From a virus (lineage: Duplodnaviria > Heunggongvirae > Uroviricota > Caudoviricetes), in IMG/VR virus record IMGVR_UViG_3300042561_000621: DNA of 64,000 bases, one strand, 5' to 3'. Made by a program: the position numbers and the translations under genes. The notes under the pieces were generated by a model. It searched no databases. It saw only the letters and a program-made list of their open reading frames with translations, and was not told where the DNA came from. Each line of letters starts with the position of its first letter. Position 1 is the stretch's first letter. Below are positions 6,001 to 60,120 of this stretch, in pieces.

Positions 6001-7500
6001 CTAGGAAACTTTATATCAGAGCAAGGTGATAGGTTTCAAAATTGGGGTAGATCAGGTTTTAGAGCATTACAAGATAATAGTGCTTATGTTACTAGTACTG
6101 CTGGTGCAGCATTTAGTGCAGGTGCTTTTTATAATTTAACTAGAGGTGGTAATCCTTTAATAAATTTAGGTATTTTAACAGTTGGTGCCCTATTATTTGG
6201 TAGTGGTATGGCTAAGATATTTGAAGATAAAAAGAATGTTAACCATAAAGCAGATGCAGCTAGTAGAGCAGGATTACATGTTATAGCTAACATGGTTGCT
6301 AGTAAATATAGTCCTAAACTAATTGATATGGCTGGTAACTTAGTAACTAAAACAATGGGAAGTAGAGCAGCAGAAGAAATAGCAAAGAATAAAGCAATAC
6401 AAGCAACAGGAGAAATGTTTACTAAAGCTGCTAACACAACAATAGGTAGAAGTATAACTAAATCAGCAGCAGCAAAAATAGTTGCTATAGGTGCTGGTAA
6501 AATTGCATTAGCAGCTAAAGGAATAGGATCATTATTAGGATCATTCTTTGCAGGGCCTTGGGGACTTGGAATAATGATAGGTATGTCAATCTTTGAACTT
6601 GTAAGTATATTAACAATACCAGATGAAATGGACAACCTAACATCTAATTTAAGTCATATGCCTAGTCAATGGATTGGACAGCCTGGCAACTTGTTATTAT
6701 CACCATCTAATCAAATATACAATGACAGAAAGTACAAAGATGTAGATGCTAGAAACCCTTTATTCTATGGCACTGTAACTGATGCTGCTAAAGAACAATG
6801 GTTAGAACAAGTAAGTACAATGGATGACATAACAGGTAGAAGTGCTGCTGGTAGAAACACTACATCATTTGATGCTCCTATGACTGGATATGATGCAACT
6901 GCAAGAGGTTATGGACCAAAGGGATTAGATCCAGTTGAAGACATGGCACAAAACATTAGAGGTAGACTATACACACAACAAGTAACAGGTAGACAATATA
7001 GAAATACTAAGATAGATGAAAGTATGAATAGAGAGATAATACAGCAAAGAATGACAACTGCTGAGAAGTTACAAGTACAGATGTGGGAGAGACAGATTAA
7101 CAATGCAGTTGACACACAAAATAAACAAATAACAGGCAAACCACCAACATCTGCTAAAGAATTTAGAAGTATAAATAATCAAGCAATGAAAGACATAGGA
7201 GAAATATCAAGTAAAGTTGCTAGTAACTTAAAAACTATAGAAGGTATAATTGCTAATCCAAATCTAGCATTAATAATGGAACAGTCTAAGATACCAACAG
7301 ATCCTACTAAACAAATATTCTTAGATGGTAAACATTTAATGTTATCTGCTAATAAAGTAGAAGTAACAAAAAATGATTTAGGTCAAAAGGTATATAATTT
7401 TAATAAAACAACTGCTCCTAATGCAGAAATTATAGCTATACAATATGCTAATCAAGGTATTGATCATGTTACTGCTAATACTTTAGGATCTCCCACTTAA
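1..7500 (+). CDS. Giant (>2499 aa, 5'-truncated) virion-associated protein, tape-measure or internal ejection-protein-like
   Basis: The frame is open from base 1 (SKLFKYAGQAADGNTLGYALNL...), so the TTG at 64 is internal. The protein is G/A/T/S-rich with many hydrophobic helices. No catalytic motif was recognised; the function is inferred from size and composition only. Confidence 0.55.
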   Translation, partial: SKLFKYAGQAADGNTLGYALNLLDKGGTYTGMKVASTKLSAAKWIIGALFIPQLVGTEYLQRTGLSLAGSFIAQSLLTTGTTNTVAELQSTNFVSVKEVARGMGLDVNTSNLIGGVETLVSMAGIANWAYNHASTFAPEIHANVLKGQRVFDMIDAISISTDSDGLATNYKKVTGLQSIQDIVGKRGGLSAKIGNSEIAFNIVRDNNDKIVGLQALNAKVMKNMTSFTISLGLTLAAMQTARYVVSSVINSERQLTGSAFLSTYLLALPATILAGAATIDNIAHTANWVGAMTGKKVGHNNYYLTGKVAMGGLYALQGATNMMFKNGVTTAVSLSLLAATAWLGYTHKLTPFQGDINGPKADELNMTAMTKLGSYVAHVNRRIQEAKDRGRDNAISERVSPLEVNAALLAVSLGKIMNPILSSQKGSTAYVTAIQSPTPIFQFYSVIKKIEDRGGNSYTTVGLGLQGPPAFGFAPINVSLPIAFAMNKESANGVALKTGFLGSGIVLNENNKDGLSLNDYASIYGQIALWSSVGLTVSSTLSSNRSWGSTRQILKAGGTFVPSEPLLIQSMRSGRDKFMGIATLPFSVAMQSMKLATGDLRMPSLRLTGSSFMPLIFNAIAAGVFSQFLVGVHREATLPFKDSQDKSKKDTSWNWWVIGPGAALWTGYQYYKGTIAASRTLASLEDVLITEGPDSVKFDKKNIDPFIKSMYNNNALGIKGLHTWLRGKGLQGGLFGTFAKDGLDTQIKGPKGRLGKGIGLVIAGGLWNLFLTDPRVGKINPQVAYGNLRDDTEDTYSGSIRRLTTIGVTTAAFVATASLSTLNIWNFTSTIDYESLIDNYEQRLRTVKVLEYKLKKGAGFGAWANLQYQRMKLNQQGWEVQAIYKGDMNKSPMIEFLDEKGKELNSALKQKDPTANLRQVAKERGTAAFTNLQQLDTTAGTDLNSIAKNNDAKSVISAIRNGYTDLNLPPDKQAKNLSNALKNSAWLGGGNLGIRTRQIANFAKWGAAVGFIFNLPNWMSNAFGYKDFQDVFLKEDEVGNNSWKQGIVDAIKMMTGHDRANNYDIARGLVGPNFKTSEGEFLLSPDTTVKGSLNKAIKNLQKLTLFNSPNIFIGAELGGITVRADDSDARIRDYFQLQSASQDFSSAMYSMSAVFGLQELAKKGFLANAIVAKLRGIDDGQDLNQNQLRSFGADIITAVYSQPIRQGKDRIKFTAPDKFTLDAMQTNKALSMSLNQRYKTLRSLSYANMMQLANFTLLNNMSIADPAMQNKIYKALMRLNEDDQMGLGEISQNFFMGGKLDVNKVILKGKNDSPFTPFKLSIEETNSENAFSDSMGLAMRSTTSQYLEPKNLLETITSNANQLLPSSIKSMGQMPGPLLLAMSILGIGGLLVATSAVVFSFSQSQVTKENTALYRQQSKFYDEGDWFSKNKVEAVQLQGPAKLDEVTQQLQTSQYLLFKRTGVVFNIAEGLDSSLITQYTKQINELAGDLSFTFDSNYRNFSKNYGQVDFDKLNDFYDKQVSTTTEVPTEITREQRINRNYARSFTPIMANEDLKVTYAKDQKIIEHLLDEFTNKQLLDAYLEGQYEAYKGQKDPSISNKGDFAKKYYPGFTYDDLLKQQVDKSFIRVNDKTKPAHDLNIFGKDRNADMSHSINRMKEVYAAKFDVIIDTYFDVLESRVTATFVEFPDRNIYTEFIGSDLYDIDRPTSQADIKSHLTNRRMEMKQKLRINISDELTRLFAPKISGMWAFADTLLTLVKGGKVENNLARISLGAADAAKNTIMEIRAKGGNVFGGRGNMGANTELGKAALEAAENQLKVTTGQGVTNSMNAGPTPSSIKTNLAGKGGWEFLTYGGSLIMNAFQAAQFASTNLLTLRAAASIASSKTGEREKEMAKEEMAKEGFENMFAGLFWGAVFGNESLKAWGIPTAVGLVAGYMGYDFMQKNKIVAGVSGSMFIVGGIKLFKDVNKHWGLSVALIGLTLVGRSVFDMTPEALKTLSPELGNFISEQGDRFQNWGRSGFRALQDNSAYVTSTAGAAFSAGAFYNLTRGGNPLINLGILTVGALLFGSGMAKIFEDKKNVNHKADAASRAGLHVIANMVASKYSPKLIDMAGNLVTKTMGSRAAEEIAKNKAIQATGEMFTKAANTTIGRSITKSAAAKIVAIGAGKIALAAKGIGSLLGSFFAGPWGLGIMIGMSIFELVSILTIPDEMDNLTSNLSHMPSQWIGQPGNLLLSPSNQIYNDRKYKDVDARNPLFYGTVTDAAKEQWLEQVSTMDDITGRSAAGRNTTSFDAPMTGYDATARGYGPKGLDPVEDMAQNIRGRLYTQQVTGRQYRNTKIDESMNREIIQQRMTTAEKLQVQMWERQINNAVDTQNKQITGKPPTSAKEFRSINNQAMKDIGEISSKVASNLKTIEGIIANPNLALIMEQSKIPTDPTKQIFLDGKHLMLSANKVEVTKNDLGQKVYNFNKTTAPNAEIIAIQYANQGIDHVTANTLGSPT

Positions 7501-54694: not shown

Positions 54695-55399
54695 TTAATG
54701 TTCTTTTAAATTATAATTATTAGCCATCCAAAGAGGACATTGTTTAAGTTTATTTTTTAAATAAGCATTAATTAAAACTACTTTAGTTCTTTCTTTTAAC
54801 AAACATCTAGGCATAAGACCTAACTTTGATACTTCTTGAATTGTAAAATTAGGAACACCATATAAAAATGAATCTAATAATTGTTTTTCTAATCTAAGAA
54901 GTAATGCCCAAAAATAAACAAAAATCATATAAGGATGTGTATTTTTATCTAATATATCTACTTGACTATATAAATCTTTAACAATATGTTCATTTCTAGA
55001 ACTAAAGTAATAATAATTAGAACCTTCTTTTGATAAAGTTCTTTTTATTCTATTAAATCTTTTAAATGTTACTTCCCACATATTTCCATAAAAAGAAACT
55101 TCATCATCAAATACTAAATCAACACAACTAGTAACTAATAATTCTTTATCAATTATCATATTCATAATGACTAAATAATGTGGATATAGTCTATGTAAAA
55201 ATTCATATCGACAGTATTTTAAAAGAGTCATTAAATCGGGATATAATAACTCAGTAATTAATTCTTTAACTACTTCATCATTTTTAATAGATACTCCAAT
55301 AATTATAAAAGGAATGTATAAAGAATCCCCATTACCCGATTGAACTGCTACACAGTTAATAATATTATTATTTAATAACTCCTTATTATCTTCTATCAC
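54695..55399 (-). CDS. Hypothetical protein
   Basis: 234-aa coupled ORF. Confidence 0.55.
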   Translation of the reverse strand: MIEDNKELLNNNIINCVAVQSGNGDSLYIPFIIIGVSIKNDEVVKELITELLYPDLMTLLKYCRYEFLHRLYPHYLVIMNMIIDKELLVTSCVDLVFDDEVSFYGNMWEVTFKRFNRIKRTLSKEGSNYYYFSSRNEHIVKDLYSQVDILDKNTHPYMIFVYFWALLLRLEKQLLDSFLYGVPNFTIQEVSKLGLMPRCLLKERTKVVLINAYLKNKLKQCPLWMANNYNLKEH

Positions 55400-56555
55400 T
55401 ATAAAAATCCAATATACTTACAACATAATTATAACTATCTTTACCAATTAAATTATAAAATACTTCTCTATTTTTATTATCATTTGTTACTTCAATTAGT
55501 TTTATTAAACTTATATGTTTACTTCTATCTTCTTTATATAAATTTATTAAAAAGTCTATAAAAGGTGTCATATTATTCTCTAATAATTCCTTACTAATTA
55601 AATTTTTACAAAGTAAATCATTAATATCTTTAGCCTCTAAAGGTAAATATATATAATATTTAGTAGTAGGATTAAGTAAGATTAAATCAATAATTTGAGG
55701 TATTAGTTGTTTGTAAGATTTATAGTTATTAAATTCATCTTTATCACTATCAAAACAAAAACATATTTGTTTAAAAGGAGATAGTTTATTACTATAGTTT
55801 AATAATCCTTGTACTCCTAATATACCAACAGCTTGTAATCCTAATTGATATAAAGATATAGTATCAACAAATCCTTCTGATATACATAATAATTTATTAG
55901 TATTATATAAATCTATAAATTGTTCTAATATTAAAGTATTTATACTAACTTCTAAGTTTTTATATCTTGGTATTAATTGATTAAAAGGTCCAATATATCT
56001 ACCTACAAAAGAGGTTATATAACCATTATTTGATATAACTGGAAATACAATTCTATCAATAAAAAACTCTTTATTATTTTTAAATAAACCATATTTATTT
56101 AAAAGACTTCTACTAAAATTACTTCTTAGATTTGTACCTGAGGCATAACCAATATTTATCATTTTAATAGTATTTAATGCTAGTCCTCTATTTAATAAAT
56201 ATTGTAAAGAATTTCCTTCTAAATCATTAATATAAGTATTATTAACTTCTTTATAAAAATTATATTTAACTGTGTCAATATTAGTTTTTGTTTTAATATT
56301 AAATCTTTCAGCTAAATCTTTAATAGATTCTTTATAATTATCTTTTGTGCCAAATAACAAATAACTATTAAGACCTATAACATCTGCTTTAAAACCACAA
56401 GAAGCACTAAAACAATATACAAATTCATTATTAATAATAGATGCTTTTTTAACTCTATTACAACAAGGACAGTCTATTGTTTTAGTATATTTAGTAGATA
56501 ATAAATCACTAATCTTTACATTACTTTTAATTTCACTAAGAAGATCCCATGCCAT
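55386..56555 (-). CDS. DnaG-type DNA primase
   Basis: Zn finger CPCC...CFSASCG, YLLNRG, DRIVFP, SFVGR, KYKN-like RYKN, TOPRIM SEGFVD...CFDSD. Confidence 0.88.
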   Translation of the reverse strand: MAWDLLSEIKSNVKISDLLSTKYTKTIDCPCCNRVKKASIINNEFVYCFSASCGFKADVIGLNSYLLFGTKDNYKESIKDLAERFNIKTKTNIDTVKYNFYKEVNNTYINDLEGNSLQYLLNRGLALNTIKMINIGYASGTNLRSNFSRSLLNKYGLFKNNKEFFIDRIVFPVISNNGYITSFVGRYIGPFNQLIPRYKNLEVSINTLILEQFIDLYNTNKLLCISEGFVDTISLYQLGLQAVGILGVQGLLNYSNKLSPFKQICFCFDSDKDEFNNYKSYKQLIPQIIDLILLNPTTKYYIYLPLEAKDINDLLCKNLISKELLENNMTPFIDFLINLYKEDRSKHISLIKLIEVTNDNKNREVFYNLIGKDSYNYVVSILDFYSDRR

Positions 56556-57343
56556 TATTAATAAACCTTAGATACTCTGGATCAATATAACAACAACTAT
56601 CAAAGTCTTTAACATTTCCTATAACTCTAATGTTTTCTACATTTGTATTTCTAGATAAAGCAACATAAGCCATACCTGAACACTTACCCATAAACTTATC
56701 ATTAGTGCCCATACTTACTTGTAACTTCTCAGTTGTAATACCTTGTATACTATGAATAGTACATGCAAATGATAACTTAAGAGGTACATAATTTATGCAT
56801 CCTTCTTCAACATTAGTTTCAGGATTAACTATCTTCTTTTTAATCTTTTTAATAGCAACTGATTTATCATTTCTTAATAGGTTGATAATAATAGTATCTT
56901 TATATAGTTCTTCTACTACAGCCATATCACCATTAGCAACATAATTACCATCTACAGTTGTATGATTAGTAATACATCTAACTAAAGTGCCAACTTTAAG
57001 TATAACTGGATCTAAGAATGAATTCCAAGAACTATCAACTTTACCAGTTTTAGTACCTCTATATTCAAACTCATCATAACCACTAATACTTCTAAGTCTA
57101 GCTAAGTTATATGCTTCTACTTTAGCTTTTGTACTAAACAATGTTAGTCCTAAAAAGTTAGATTGAACTTCATTAACAAAACAATTATTATCAATTAATA
57201 GTTGTTTGATTTTCTGTGTCTTACCAACTCTTAAATCATTTAAAGCTTCTTTAAACTGTAGATTTGTTTGTCTATATATAGTAGTTAAAAACTCAGTTTC
57301 AAACCTATTAATGTATATACTTTTGAAGTATGGTTCAGCATTT
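56536..57343 (-). CDS. PIF1/RecD-like SF1B helicase, exon 2
   Basis: Open frame (A)NAEPYFKS...IYRQ...LRVG...PLKLSFACTIHSIQG...YVALSR. Confidence 0.88.
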
Positions 57344-58522
57344 CAATTATGTTATCGTAAAGGCTTTTTATCCTCTACTTCCAGGAGTTTCCTCCATTAT
57401 ACCTAGTCAATTCTAGGCTGGTTCGGCATATCTTATTACCCAAACTAATTTGGGTAGTCCAGTCTCTTGGAATAATTATATTCTTCTTGGTGTAACACCA
57501 AGAAGGTTCATATTCTATGCTCTGCAAGGTCTTTAGCTTTTTAATTCTAAAGATTCTCTCACGGTTAACATAGCTTGCTCCATTTTTAATCTTTTTCTTT
57601 CTAAACAAATATCAGAATTATTATATAAATAGTTATACAAAGATTTTATATCTTCTACTCTCCAATATCTAAGATTATAAATAGTAGTTGTTCTACTTTT
57701 TACCTTAGAGTAATTTGGACATTCCTGAATAGATCCTAATGCACCGCAGCTAGAATATATTTCTTCATTAAGCTTTTCTATAAAAGACCTAGAAGTACAG
57801 GTGAATTTCATCAATCTATGAATTCCATTTTTCCTGCCTTTATATATTGCTTGCTTTACAGTAATAGAGCCATCTCCATCAAAAAACCCTCTAATAAGAT
57901 GAGGCATAAGACTTGAATCTAGTGATGGGAAATCCATACCATCAATGGACTTGTTAGGTTTTACTCCTAAATTAATCAAATCATGGTACATATCTTCACT
58001 GTTTAAGCTTAAGCCGTATTGAGCTTTTCTATTATTAAGTGGTTCTCTATAATGTATTTTAAGTTGTGATTCAAGATCTTTATAAAGAGAGTAAATTATA
58101 TTAGAATCTTTATCTTGTAAGAATATACTAGTAGTATAGCCACTTCTACATACGCAACCATCTGCAAACAAAAATCCTAAGTAATAAGCCTTTCTTGCTG
58201 TATTTATATTATGAAAATAATTATAATTAAATTTAGGTTTACACAAGAGTTTAGTATTTAAACCCTTTTCTATAAACCATCTTCTAATAGTTTCTTCTGA
58301 GAAGTTTCTACTAGAAGCTATTTCTCTCATAGTTATTCCATTTTTATATAATTCATATAATTCTAATATCTGTTGAAATTCTGGTCTTTTCATGTTGTAT
58401 AAATAAATCAATTACCTATATAACATAGTAAACCTTATTATAGACATAAAGTGAGCAGCCTTAGCCTTCCCTGATATACTGGTCTTTTCTATCACACATT
58501 ACTGTGTGTAGCCACAAATTCT
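57344..58522 (-). mobile_element. Group I intron (IA-like, with P7.1) in the helicase gene
   Basis: P1 CCAU|AG..UUGUGG; P2 CACAC/GUGUG; P3 CCAGU/ACUGG; AUAUCAGGGAA; P7 GCAUA/UAUGC; P7.1 CUUCUUGGUG/CACCAAGAAG; P8 UACCCAAA/UUUGGGUA; P9 stems; 3' end ACAUAAUUG. Splicing restores GDIAQLAPINAEPYF. Confidence 0.9.
57533..58411 (-). CDS. Intron-encoded LAGLIDADG homing endonuclease with N-terminal HTH
   Basis: YYLGFLFADGCV and LIRGFFDGDGS; N-terminal ITMREIA...SEETIRRW. Confidence 0.9.
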   Translation of the reverse strand: MIYLYNMKRPEFQQILELYELYKNGITMREIASSRNFSEETIRRWFIEKGLNTKLLCKPKFNYNYFHNINTARKAYYLGFLFADGCVCRSGYTTSIFLQDKDSNIIYSLYKDLESQLKIHYREPLNNRKAQYGLSLNSEDMYHDLINLGVKPNKSIDGMDFPSLDSSLMPHLIRGFFDGDGSITVKQAIYKGRKNGIHRLMKFTCTSRSFIEKLNEEIYSSCGALGSIQECPNYSKVKSRTTTIYNLRYWRVEDIKSLYNYLYNNSDICLERKRLKMEQAMLTVRESLELKS

Positions 58523-58908
58523 ATGGGAGCCAACTGTGCAATATCACCTGTTAGATATAACTCTAACTCTTTACCAATCATCCCACCAAACACATCTAAT
58601 GATTTAATCAATGCATCAATATAATCTCTAGCTAACATTGGAGCTTCATCTATTGCAATACCATTATAATCTTGAAAGATGTTGCTATAAGTCTTAAACA
58701 ACTTACCACTTACAATACTTTTAACAATATCAGCACCTGTTAAAGCTCTTAATAGAGAATGTATAGTAGTTGCTGATTCACTTAAGTTAACACTTGCAAT
58801 GCCAGTACTAGCAGTTAAAAACAACTTGTTAGTATCAACCTCTTCTCTTAACTTAAAACTTTTACCTACTCCACTAGCCCCAGCCACCATCTTTATCTTT
58901 GTTAGCAC
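58523..58908 (-). CDS. PIF1/RecD-like SF1B helicase, exon 1
   Basis: Walker A GASGVGKS, TGIAS, TIHS, IDEAPML, GDIAQLAP. The spliced product is 397 aa. Confidence 0.88.
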
Positions 58909-58923
58909 TTTATTTCTCTTAAA

Positions 58924-60120
58924 CTAATTAATAAACACATTCTCTTCACCATATATACTGTTATATGTATTAAGTCTAGTTTTAGATTGACCTGCTGGCC
59001 AACCAATAGGATCAATAAAGTCTATTACTTCACCATAACTCTTAGTAAAACTCTTTCTAAGTACTCTACCAACCCTTTGTAATAACAATGTTGCAGATGA
59101 GTTAGCAGCAGCTAATACAACTACTTCTAAACCAGGTAAATCAGTACCTTCTGTTAATATGTTTGGCCCTGCTATTAATACACAATTAGGTTTATTAATA
59201 TTAGTTAAACCTTTAACATCACCACCTTTAATAATGTGTACTTCCTTGTTACCACAATAAGTTAATTCTATTAATTCTTTAAGAATAACAGCATGATTAT
59301 TCTCTGTAGTATTAACCTTATTAACAATAATTACAGTTGGTTTATTAGGTTGTATTAACTTAACTATTAAATCATTTCTACCTTTATTGTTAATAATTAA
59401 ACTATCAATTTGTTTGTTATATGCAAAGTGGGAAAAGGTACAATTAATAAAGTTTGGATTACAATAAGCAACAGGACTTTTATATAAGTTAATTCTTGGT
59501 AATGATATACATCCTAATTGTATTGCTTCCTTCTCTGTTAACTCATACAATAAAGGGCCATATAACTTATCTATTAAACTATTAACAGTGTAATCATCTG
59601 TATAGGGAGTAGCTGATAAAGCAGTAATACATTTAACATTAACAAGTTTATTATATAACTCAATACCACTTTGATTGATATACTTATGACTCTCATCATA
59701 TATAACATAGTCAATAACATCTAAGTTATCAATTTTATTTAAACTACCAACTAAACCAACAGTTATATTAGCCCAAATAGGTGTTTTATTACCATCACCA
59801 ATACTATCAATAGTTATACTTGTATCTTTTAAATATTCTTTTAAAACATTAGTAATTTGATGTAATAAATCAATCTTAGCAGCTACAACAAGTATATGTT
59901 TTACATTAATCTTTCTACATAACTCAGCTATAATCCAAGTCTTACCAGTACCTGTAGCAAGCTTTAAAACACCACTACCATTAGTTAATACTTGTGCTAT
60001 AGCTTCCATTTGATGTTGATATAAACCACTTGTCCAACCTTTAATAAAAGGTAAAGGGACTGTTTTATTAGTCCCTTTAAAACAAGTATTAGAAGTGTCT
60101 AGTAATTTATCCTTTAACAT
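58924..60120 (-). CDS. SF2 DExH helicase (UvsW-like)
   Basis: ATGTGKT, DESH, SATP, EGTDLP, QRVGRVLR. Confidence 0.9.
   Translation of the reverse strand: MLKDKLLDTSNTCFKGTNKTVPLPFIKGWTSGLYQHQMEAIAQVLTNGSGVLKLATGTGKTWIIAELCRKINVKHILVVAAKIDLLHQITNVLKEYLKDTSITIDSIGDGNKTPIWANITVGLVGSLNKIDNLDVIDYVIYDESHKYINQSGIELYNKLVNVKCITALSATPYTDDYTVNSLIDKLYGPLLYELTEKEAIQLGCISLPRINLYKSPVAYCNPNFINCTFSHFAYNKQIDSLIINNKGRNDLIVKLIQPNKPTVIIVNKVNTTENNHAVILKELIELTYCGNKEVHIIKGGDVKGLTNINKPNCVLIAGPNILTEGTDLPGLEVVVLAAANSSATLLLQRVGRVLRKSFTKSYGEVIDFIDPIGWPAGQSKTRLNTYNSIYGEENVFIN

Follow-up and report, generated by a model that had tools for sequence, protein, structure and literature searches.

An uncultivated, AT-rich phage of the class Caudoviricetes is represented in IMG/VR by record IMGVR_UViG_3300042561_000621, of which a stretch of 64,000 nt, analysed as a whole and hereafter called the window, carries on its minus strand a Dda/PIF1-like helicase gene whose coding sequence is broken in two. 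The gap between the two parts is 1179 nt long (58522-57344) and contains an open reading frame (ORF) for a LAGLIDADG homing endonuclease, together with RNA elements that can be arranged as a group I intron. The host gene, the splice junction, the RNA fold and the distribution of the insert among related phages are described below, and the readings that the locus allows are weighed against each other.

Results

The interrupted helicase gene

The upstream part of the gene (exon 1) encodes the Walker A motif GASGVGKS, motif Ia (TASTGIAS), motif II (DEAPM), and motif III (GDIAQLAPI), and the downstream part (exon 2) encodes motifs IV (LTTIYRQ), V (CTIHSIQGIT), and VI (YVALSRNT). Motifs I to VI are thus present in the order of a superfamily 1B (SF1B) Dda/PIF1/RecD-like helicase, and profile matches point to the same family: exon 1 matches the Pfam families PIF1, AAA_19, and AAA_30; both exons match PHROG 325 ("Dda-like helicase") at adjacent profile positions, namely 494-616 for exon 1 and 631-889 for exon 2; and intron-less homologues of the gene carry PF05970 and PF13604. 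The exon coordinates, the size of the gap, and the placement of motifs I-III and IV-VI in the original prediction were exact, as judged by sequence and profiles.

Joining position 58523 to 57343 yields 1194 nt, an open frame throughout of 397 codons plus a stop, in which codon I129 is restored from AU of exon 1 and A of exon 2. The predicted spliced junction is GCUCCCAU followed directly by AAAUGCUG, with the exon-2 side read as AAAUGCUGAACC. One alternative pair of cuts, both placed 1 base downstream, would give an identical mRNA, but with A at both positions; the cuts after CCCAU and UUG were chosen because only with them is the 5′ site preceded by U and the last base of the intron a G, as group I chemistry demands. 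The junction previously proposed (cuts after CCCAU and AAUUG) and its in-frame product of 397 amino acids are therefore borne out, since the joined frame is open and intron-less alleles run straight through it.

Without splicing, the exon-1 ORF runs past 58523 into ten unrelated codons (GDIAQLAPI followed by EFVATHSNV and a stop), while the frame of exon 2 is closed by a UGA at the junction (57345-57343) and its first in-frame start, a TTG at 57141, lies 67 codons in, beyond motif IV. Exon 2 can therefore not be translated alone. Split phage genes containing inserted endonuclease genes exist, and a "fractured" helicase gene, divided by a free-standing endonuclease gene and translated in halves into a two-piece enzyme with no splicing, has in its favor that exon 1 does end in a short ORF with its own stop. 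This explanation is nevertheless highly improbable and was rejected, since no start is found among the first 67 codons of exon 2 (motif IV included), the ends of the insert follow the U/omega-G rule, and ~320 nt of the insert outside the endonuclease ORF form a conserved, covarying group I fold.

The gene is flanked by ORFs for a SNF2/ResIII helicase (58924-60120) and a DnaG-type primase (55386-56555), which makes the region a replication module. The primase ORF shares the last 20 nt of the helicase gene (56536-56555) in a different frame, which suggests translational coupling within this module. A weak Rfam match to mir-2558 inside helicase exon 1 (58712-58794; 29 bits, E 0.004, gathering score 70) was taken as chance.

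Empty and occupied alleles of the helicase gene

A protein search with exon 2 recovered uninterrupted, full-length homologues of 390-397 amino acids, the closest two being 98% and 96% identical. Comparison with intron-less helicase alleles, which the original prediction had proposed as a check, thus showed these close relatives to be uninterrupted across the junction. In alignment to them, the end of exon 1 and the start of exon 2 are adjacent residues, exon 1 covering their residues 1-129. The junction reads GDIAQLAPI joined to NAEPYFKS in the window and GDIAQLSPINAEPYFKS in the intron-less allele P0001, with the general form GDIAQLxPINAEPYFKS. The insert is missing from seven intron-less alleles (P0001-P0007) and from four metagenome loci (L005-L008), and in the latter the helicase gene is uninterrupted at the DNA level.

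Other alleles carry the intron, as recognized at the protein level (P0021-P0025 and P0091-P0094). At least four further exon-1 ORFs, 68-95% identical, end directly after GDIAQLAPI, at the same codon as in the window. Their tails are DFCGYTQ or NFCGYAQ followed by a stop, compared with EFVATHSNV and a stop in the window; judged from these protein tails, the difference is consistent with a 1-nt length change in the first bases of the intron. Such differing read-through tails indicate a stretch without coding constraint. Occupied and empty sites thus occur among close relatives, a coexistence that is expected for a homing element and fits homing by the LAGLIDADG protein. A helicase query against IMG/VR found just one distant relative (26% identity).

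Architecture of the group I intron

A complete group I core had been predicted for the insert, and it was found by hand mapping, covariation, and a custom covariance model (Table 1). The paired elements P3 and P7 have crossing strands, which make up the group I pseudoknot; P8 is located between P3′ and P7′, and the 3′ end bears the expected omega-G (G57344). The P4-P6 domain (P4, receptor, P5a, and P6) can be drawn with a G.G apposition in P4 of the window, its covariation being judged by eye on ~6 sequences only. The third P4 pair is A-U in the window and G-C in CB452P1, the closest GenBank phage match of the window; the canonical receptor CCUAAG...UAUGG is present in a relative (L003), and the J3/4 joining segment is AAAA in most relatives and UAUA in the window.

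The region from P7 to omega-G was aligned with MAFFT for 40 sequences (alignment A4). In A4, 97.2% of cells in the proposed structure are paired, a figure that falls to 32-45% if the 3′ partners are displaced by 1-3 columns; changes on both sides occur in 25 of the 34 pairs, and none of 500 shuffles reaches any of these measures. Within P7, the pair 29-191, next to the bulge, is G-C in all 40 sequences, while the closing pair is A-U in 20 and G-C in 20; all five pairs of P7.1 covary. A perfect 6-nt complement for P3 was found in 32 of 86 introns, separated by 3-5 nt (usually AAAA) from the UCGGNN strand of P4 that follows it; ~19 different P3 sequences are involved, and swapping P3′ strands between introns leaves 3.2% perfect complements.

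A covariance model, R1, was built from 38 relatives, with the window and CB452P1 excluded. R1 matches the window once in 64 kb, at 57342-57528 on the minus strand, over model positions 1-155 of 155, with 123.1 bits and E 8e-27 (R1 E-values are rough, the calibration having been short). The held-out CB452P1 scores 128 bits, and R1 has no match in the four intron-less helicase loci.

An extra hairpin with a conserved GAAUUGA or GAAUUAA loop is present in P9 (57402-57417 in the window) of the window, CB452P1, L120, L023, L068, L124, and L012. When the intron was scanned for promoters and terminators, promoter-like sites were less numerous than in shuffled sequence, giving no indication of an endonuclease-specific promoter.

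Table 1. Features of the helicase gene and its intron in the 64,000-nt window (RNA letters given 5′ to 3′ on the minus strand; A4, 40-sequence alignment)
Feature	Position	Strand	Remarks and basis
Helicase exon 1	58523..58908	-	Motifs I, Ia, II, III; 3′ end GDIAQLAP-I[AU]; Pfam, PHROG 325, allele alignment
Helicase exon 2	56536..57343	-	Motifs IV, V, VI and stop codon; PHROG 325, 98% identity to intron-less P0001
Group I intron, IA-like (very probable)	57344..58522	-	1179 nt; missing from intron-less alleles; core elements mapped; family model matches 3′ half
LAGLIDADG homing endonuclease gene	57533..58393	-	In P5a loop; ATG start, 286 aa; TTG start at 58411, 292 aa; N-terminal helix-turn-helix
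P1	58526-58523 with 58515-58512	-	Exon CCAU pairs guide GUGG; U58523.G58515 at splice site; sequence, same layout in relatives
P10	58519-58516 with 57343-57340	-	Guide AUUU pairs first exon-2 bases AAAU; directly 5′ of P1 guide
P2 hairpin	58489..58511	-	GNRA (GUAA) loop; GUAA or GCGA loops at same place in relatives
P3, 5′ strand GACCAG	58484-58479	-	Pairs CUGGAC 57462-57457 at 5/6 positions, one A.A
J3/4 UAUA	58478-58475	-	
P4, 5′ strand UCAGGG	58474-58469	-	Pairs CCGUGA 57564-57559 at 5/6 positions, one G.G
Tetraloop-receptor-like GGCUAAG	58466-58460	-	Partner UAUGUU 57572-57567
P5a, 5′ strand GCUGCUC	58459-58453	-	Partner GAGC(A)AGC 57580-57573
P5a′, receptor 3′ half, P4′, P6	57530..57580	-	Inside endonuclease ORF except last 3 nt
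P6 hairpin UCUUUAG/CUAAAGA	57553-57547 with 57536-57530	-	
P7 G(A)GCAUA/UAUGCC	57522-57516 with 57430-57425	-	100% paired in A4
P7.1 GAAUA/UAUUC	57515-57511 with 57474-57470	-	Composite stem; distal hairpin 57506-57483; 99.5% paired in A4
P3′ CUGGAC	57462-57457	-	
P8	57456-57437	-	94% paired in A4
J8/7	57436-57431	-	
P9 three-way element	57421-57378	-	GAAA loop
P9.2 hairpin GUAGAGG/CCUUUAC	57378-57357	-	
3′ tail GAUAACAUAAUUG	ends at G57344	-	Ends in omega-G

The intron-encoded endonuclease and its overlap with the core

The protein encoded in the insert has two LAGLIDADG motifs, each with an acidic residue (LGFLFADGC and IRGFFDGDGS). It scores above the Pfam cut-offs for LAGLIDADG_3 (PF14528; 28.5, cut-off 22.5) and LAGLIDADG_1 (PF00961; 23.4, cut-off 23.1), matches PHROG 4645 (E 2.8e-46), and aligns with the LAGLIDADG enzyme 2DCH of the PDB across both motifs (E 5e-4). 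Homologues that are 76-79% identical were found, together with one 212-amino-acid fragment at 99%, and the ORF is intact and conserved in at least five alleles.

As had been predicted, the gene sits in the P5 region, specifically in the P5a loop, and its 3′ end runs into the ribozyme core: the ORF passes through P5a′, the receptor, and P4′, and its UAA stop (57535-57533) falls within the 3′ strand of P6, so that the last ~48 nt of the gene also serve as core. The last 32 residues of the endonuclease (codons 57536-57631) hardly vary among homologues whose identity is otherwise 76-79%, the only two substitutions occurring in P0024. This pattern fits a stretch that doubles as RNA core. Only ~16 of these 32 codons overlap core helices that can be drawn, and the upstream half of the stretch may hide a further RNA element, such as P5b.

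Inteins with LAGLIDADG domains are common in helicases, so that the insert might be read as an intein or, alternatively, as a group II intron. Both were rejected and are extremely improbable: the insert is out of frame, with a stop 10 codons in; a Pfam search found no Hint domain or reverse-transcriptase match in it; and its RNA shows the features of group I, not group II.

A lineage of related introns in phage genes

The window intron is one member of a large lineage of phage introns. A BLASTN search matched its final 50-140 nt to 36 GenBank phage records, mostly from Staphylococcus, Clostridium, and Clostridioides phages. At all three GenBank loci examined, a gene is split by a gap that has the match at its 3′ edge. 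One of these genes encodes a terminase large subunit, and its gap contains a homing endonuclease; the other two encode a tape-measure protein and a hypothetical protein. A 27-nt pattern from the 3′ region of the intron occurs once in the 64-kb window and in at least 116 IMG/VR stretches. In sampled relatives, GAUAAC is followed by 4-7 nt, then G, and then sequence that is unrelated between loci, which is the pattern expected where an omega-G adjoins a different exon at each locus. The 67 3′ exons sampled from the lineage include tape-measure, AAA_24, terminase, capsid, and ribonucleotide reductase (RNR) genes, and no other helicase. Compact members of ~300-400 nt, without room for an endonuclease gene, also occur (L076, L068, L023/L031, and L120).

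The P9.2 hairpin with its loop of 8 nt, AUAAAAAG, and the GAUAAC behind it (57351-57377 in the window; A4 columns 266-293) are almost invariant across unrelated genes, to a degree far above that of the catalytic core and in part owing to the way in which the sequences were gathered. This invariance may reflect a tertiary contact or a site for protein binding.

The IMG/VR contig fragment L120 contains three group I introns, at 146-492, 851-1149, and ~6420-6737; the Rfam group I model RF00028 recognizes two of them (45.7 and 92.8 bits), and the third, which it misses, is a member of the window intron's lineage. In the genome of Clostridium phage c-st (AP008983.1 / NC_007581.1), the intron 3′ motif is found at 123820-123868 with 90% identity, in a stretch without an annotated feature, where an unannotated group I intron is probably present, judging from this motif.

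Discussion

The insert is read as an intron on the strength of the break in the gene, the alleles with an empty site, the RNA architecture with its covariation, and the intact endonuclease motifs. It is very probably a mobile group I intron of IA type, interrupting the Dda/PIF1-like helicase gene of this uncultivated, AT-rich phage, and from its sequence features it would be expected to splice and to home.

Several observations weigh against this assignment. RF00028, whose use the original prediction had proposed, returned no group I match at the gathering threshold or at E<=10, whether run on the whole window, on the 2-kb region, or on the 276-nt core alone, and it also missed members of the lineage in 5-7 related loci, four of them with members lacking an ORF; the weak Rfam matches seen in those scans (mir-2558, snoRNAs, and RUF2) are chance. 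Because RF00028 is silent, the identification depends on the structure model developed here. Apart from P3, the 5′ half of the intron (P1-P5) was compared on few sequences. In addition, the window copy has non-canonical appositions in P3 (A.A) and P4 (G.G) and a P1 of only 4 pairs. Since RF00028 finds the two other introns in L120 yet misses the member of this lineage, its silence appears to place the lineage outside the reach of that model, and it is not taken as evidence against the fold.

The same irregularities, namely one mismatch each in P3 and P4 and the short P1, could be signs of a decayed intron that no longer splices, or does so only with protein assistance, in which case the helicase gene would be dead or would need a maturase or host factor; LAGLIDADG proteins are indeed capable of acting as maturases (PMC3984707). 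Decay is nonetheless an unlikely explanation, given that neither exon is damaged and their identity to uninterrupted alleles is 96-98%, the 3′ core scores comparably to that of the held-out CB452P1 (123 versus 128 bits), and the endonuclease ORF is conserved without disruption. On sequence grounds, the window copy of the group I intron is probably active.

If so, the helicase mRNA would be made as a precursor containing the intron. The internal guide AUUUGUGG is predicted to hold both exon ends, through P1 with its U.G pair at the 5′ splice site and through P10, while the P4-P6 domain would be braced by the GAAA loop of L9 and the receptor in P5. The P3-P7 pseudoknot carries the invariant G-C pair beside the bulge, the putative guanosine-binding site. 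An external guanosine would attack after U58523, and the freed exon would then attack after omega-G 57344, such that exon ligation would restore codon I129 and the 397-amino-acid helicase. The LAGLIDADG protein, whose gene lies in the P5a loop, is proposed to cut intron-less helicase alleles, whereupon repair would copy the intron into them (homing).

Phage group I introns with homing endonucleases are textbook knowledge (PMC3984707), and the kind of element described here is already known; its host gene, the overlap between endonuclease gene and core, and its escape from the Rfam model are modest points of interest. Terminase, polymerase, lysin, and recA-like genes are known intron targets in Bacillus and Staphylococcus phages. 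The original prediction was correct in placing the insertion in a helicase gene, but overstated the case in calling such a target unusual, since phage replication genes are well-documented locations of group I introns (Yutin 2021, PMC7886860). That study reported many group I introns with LAGLIDADG ORFs in the PolB, primase, and ATPase genes of crAss-like phages, identified by protein domains only, and Dda/PIF1-like helicases are not among its listed targets (Yutin 2021, PMC7886860). The crAss-like phages are a different phage group that shares a high intron load in large uncultivated phages. A limited search of open-access text found no published intron in a Dda/PIF1-like helicase gene.

Among characterized systems, the IA2 introns described by Tourasse and Kolsto 2008 (PMC2504315) in prophage tape-measure and other phage genes of Gram-positive hosts are likewise phage-borne IA-type ribozymes in conserved gene sites, and the window lineage, too, interrupts genes for tape-measure proteins, terminases, capsid proteins, and RNR of Clostridium and Staphylococcus phages. 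In contrast to those introns, the one in the window resides in a Dda/PIF1-like helicase gene of an uncultivated, AT-rich phage; its lineage may be shared with the published Bacillus cereus introns. The IA2 introns of the T4 td, nrdB, and nrdD genes (I-TevI, I-TevII, and I-TevIII) have in common with it an endonuclease gene in a peripheral loop, insertion into a conserved motif of a DNA-metabolism gene, and an extension between P7 and P3′. They differ in that the window endonuclease is of the LAGLIDADG type, rather than GIY-YIG or HNH, is located in P5a instead of P6, and overlaps P5a′-P6 with the 3′ end of its gene, as well as in P7, which is GCAUA/UAUGC in the window and usually GACUA/UAGUC, and in that RF00028 does not detect the window intron. 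The closest annotated relatives of the endonuclease are intron-encoded LAGLIDADG (DOD) enzymes in a recA-like gene of Twort-like Staphylococcus phages (I-MsaII type; PMC5618024), which are also carried by phage group I introns. This likeness concerns the endonucleases alone: the host gene differs, and identity is low (~30% over 93% of the length).

A wider proposition can be advanced only tentatively and, taken as a whole, is doubtful: that the large lineage of the window intron, with its at least 116 IMG/VR stretches, is a coherent one, marked by GCAUA/UAUGC as an atypical P7, by one composite P7.1, and by a P9.2 hairpin and tail that hardly vary; that this lineage, missed completely by RF00028, is systematically unannotated in phage genomes, its host genes being called as two "hypothetical" halves; and that it is described here for the first time in an SF1B Dda/PIF1-like helicase.

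The finding leaves the known workings of such elements unchanged, and its consequences lie chiefly in annotation: the helicase ORFs 58908..58523 and 57343..56536 should be joined and the endonuclease labeled as intron-encoded. The endonuclease is a candidate for a new LAGLIDADG specificity, with a target that presumably spans the region encoding helicase motif III. With a purpose-built model such as R1, many split phage genes would be recovered, including those for tape-measure proteins, terminases, capsid proteins, RNR, and helicases.

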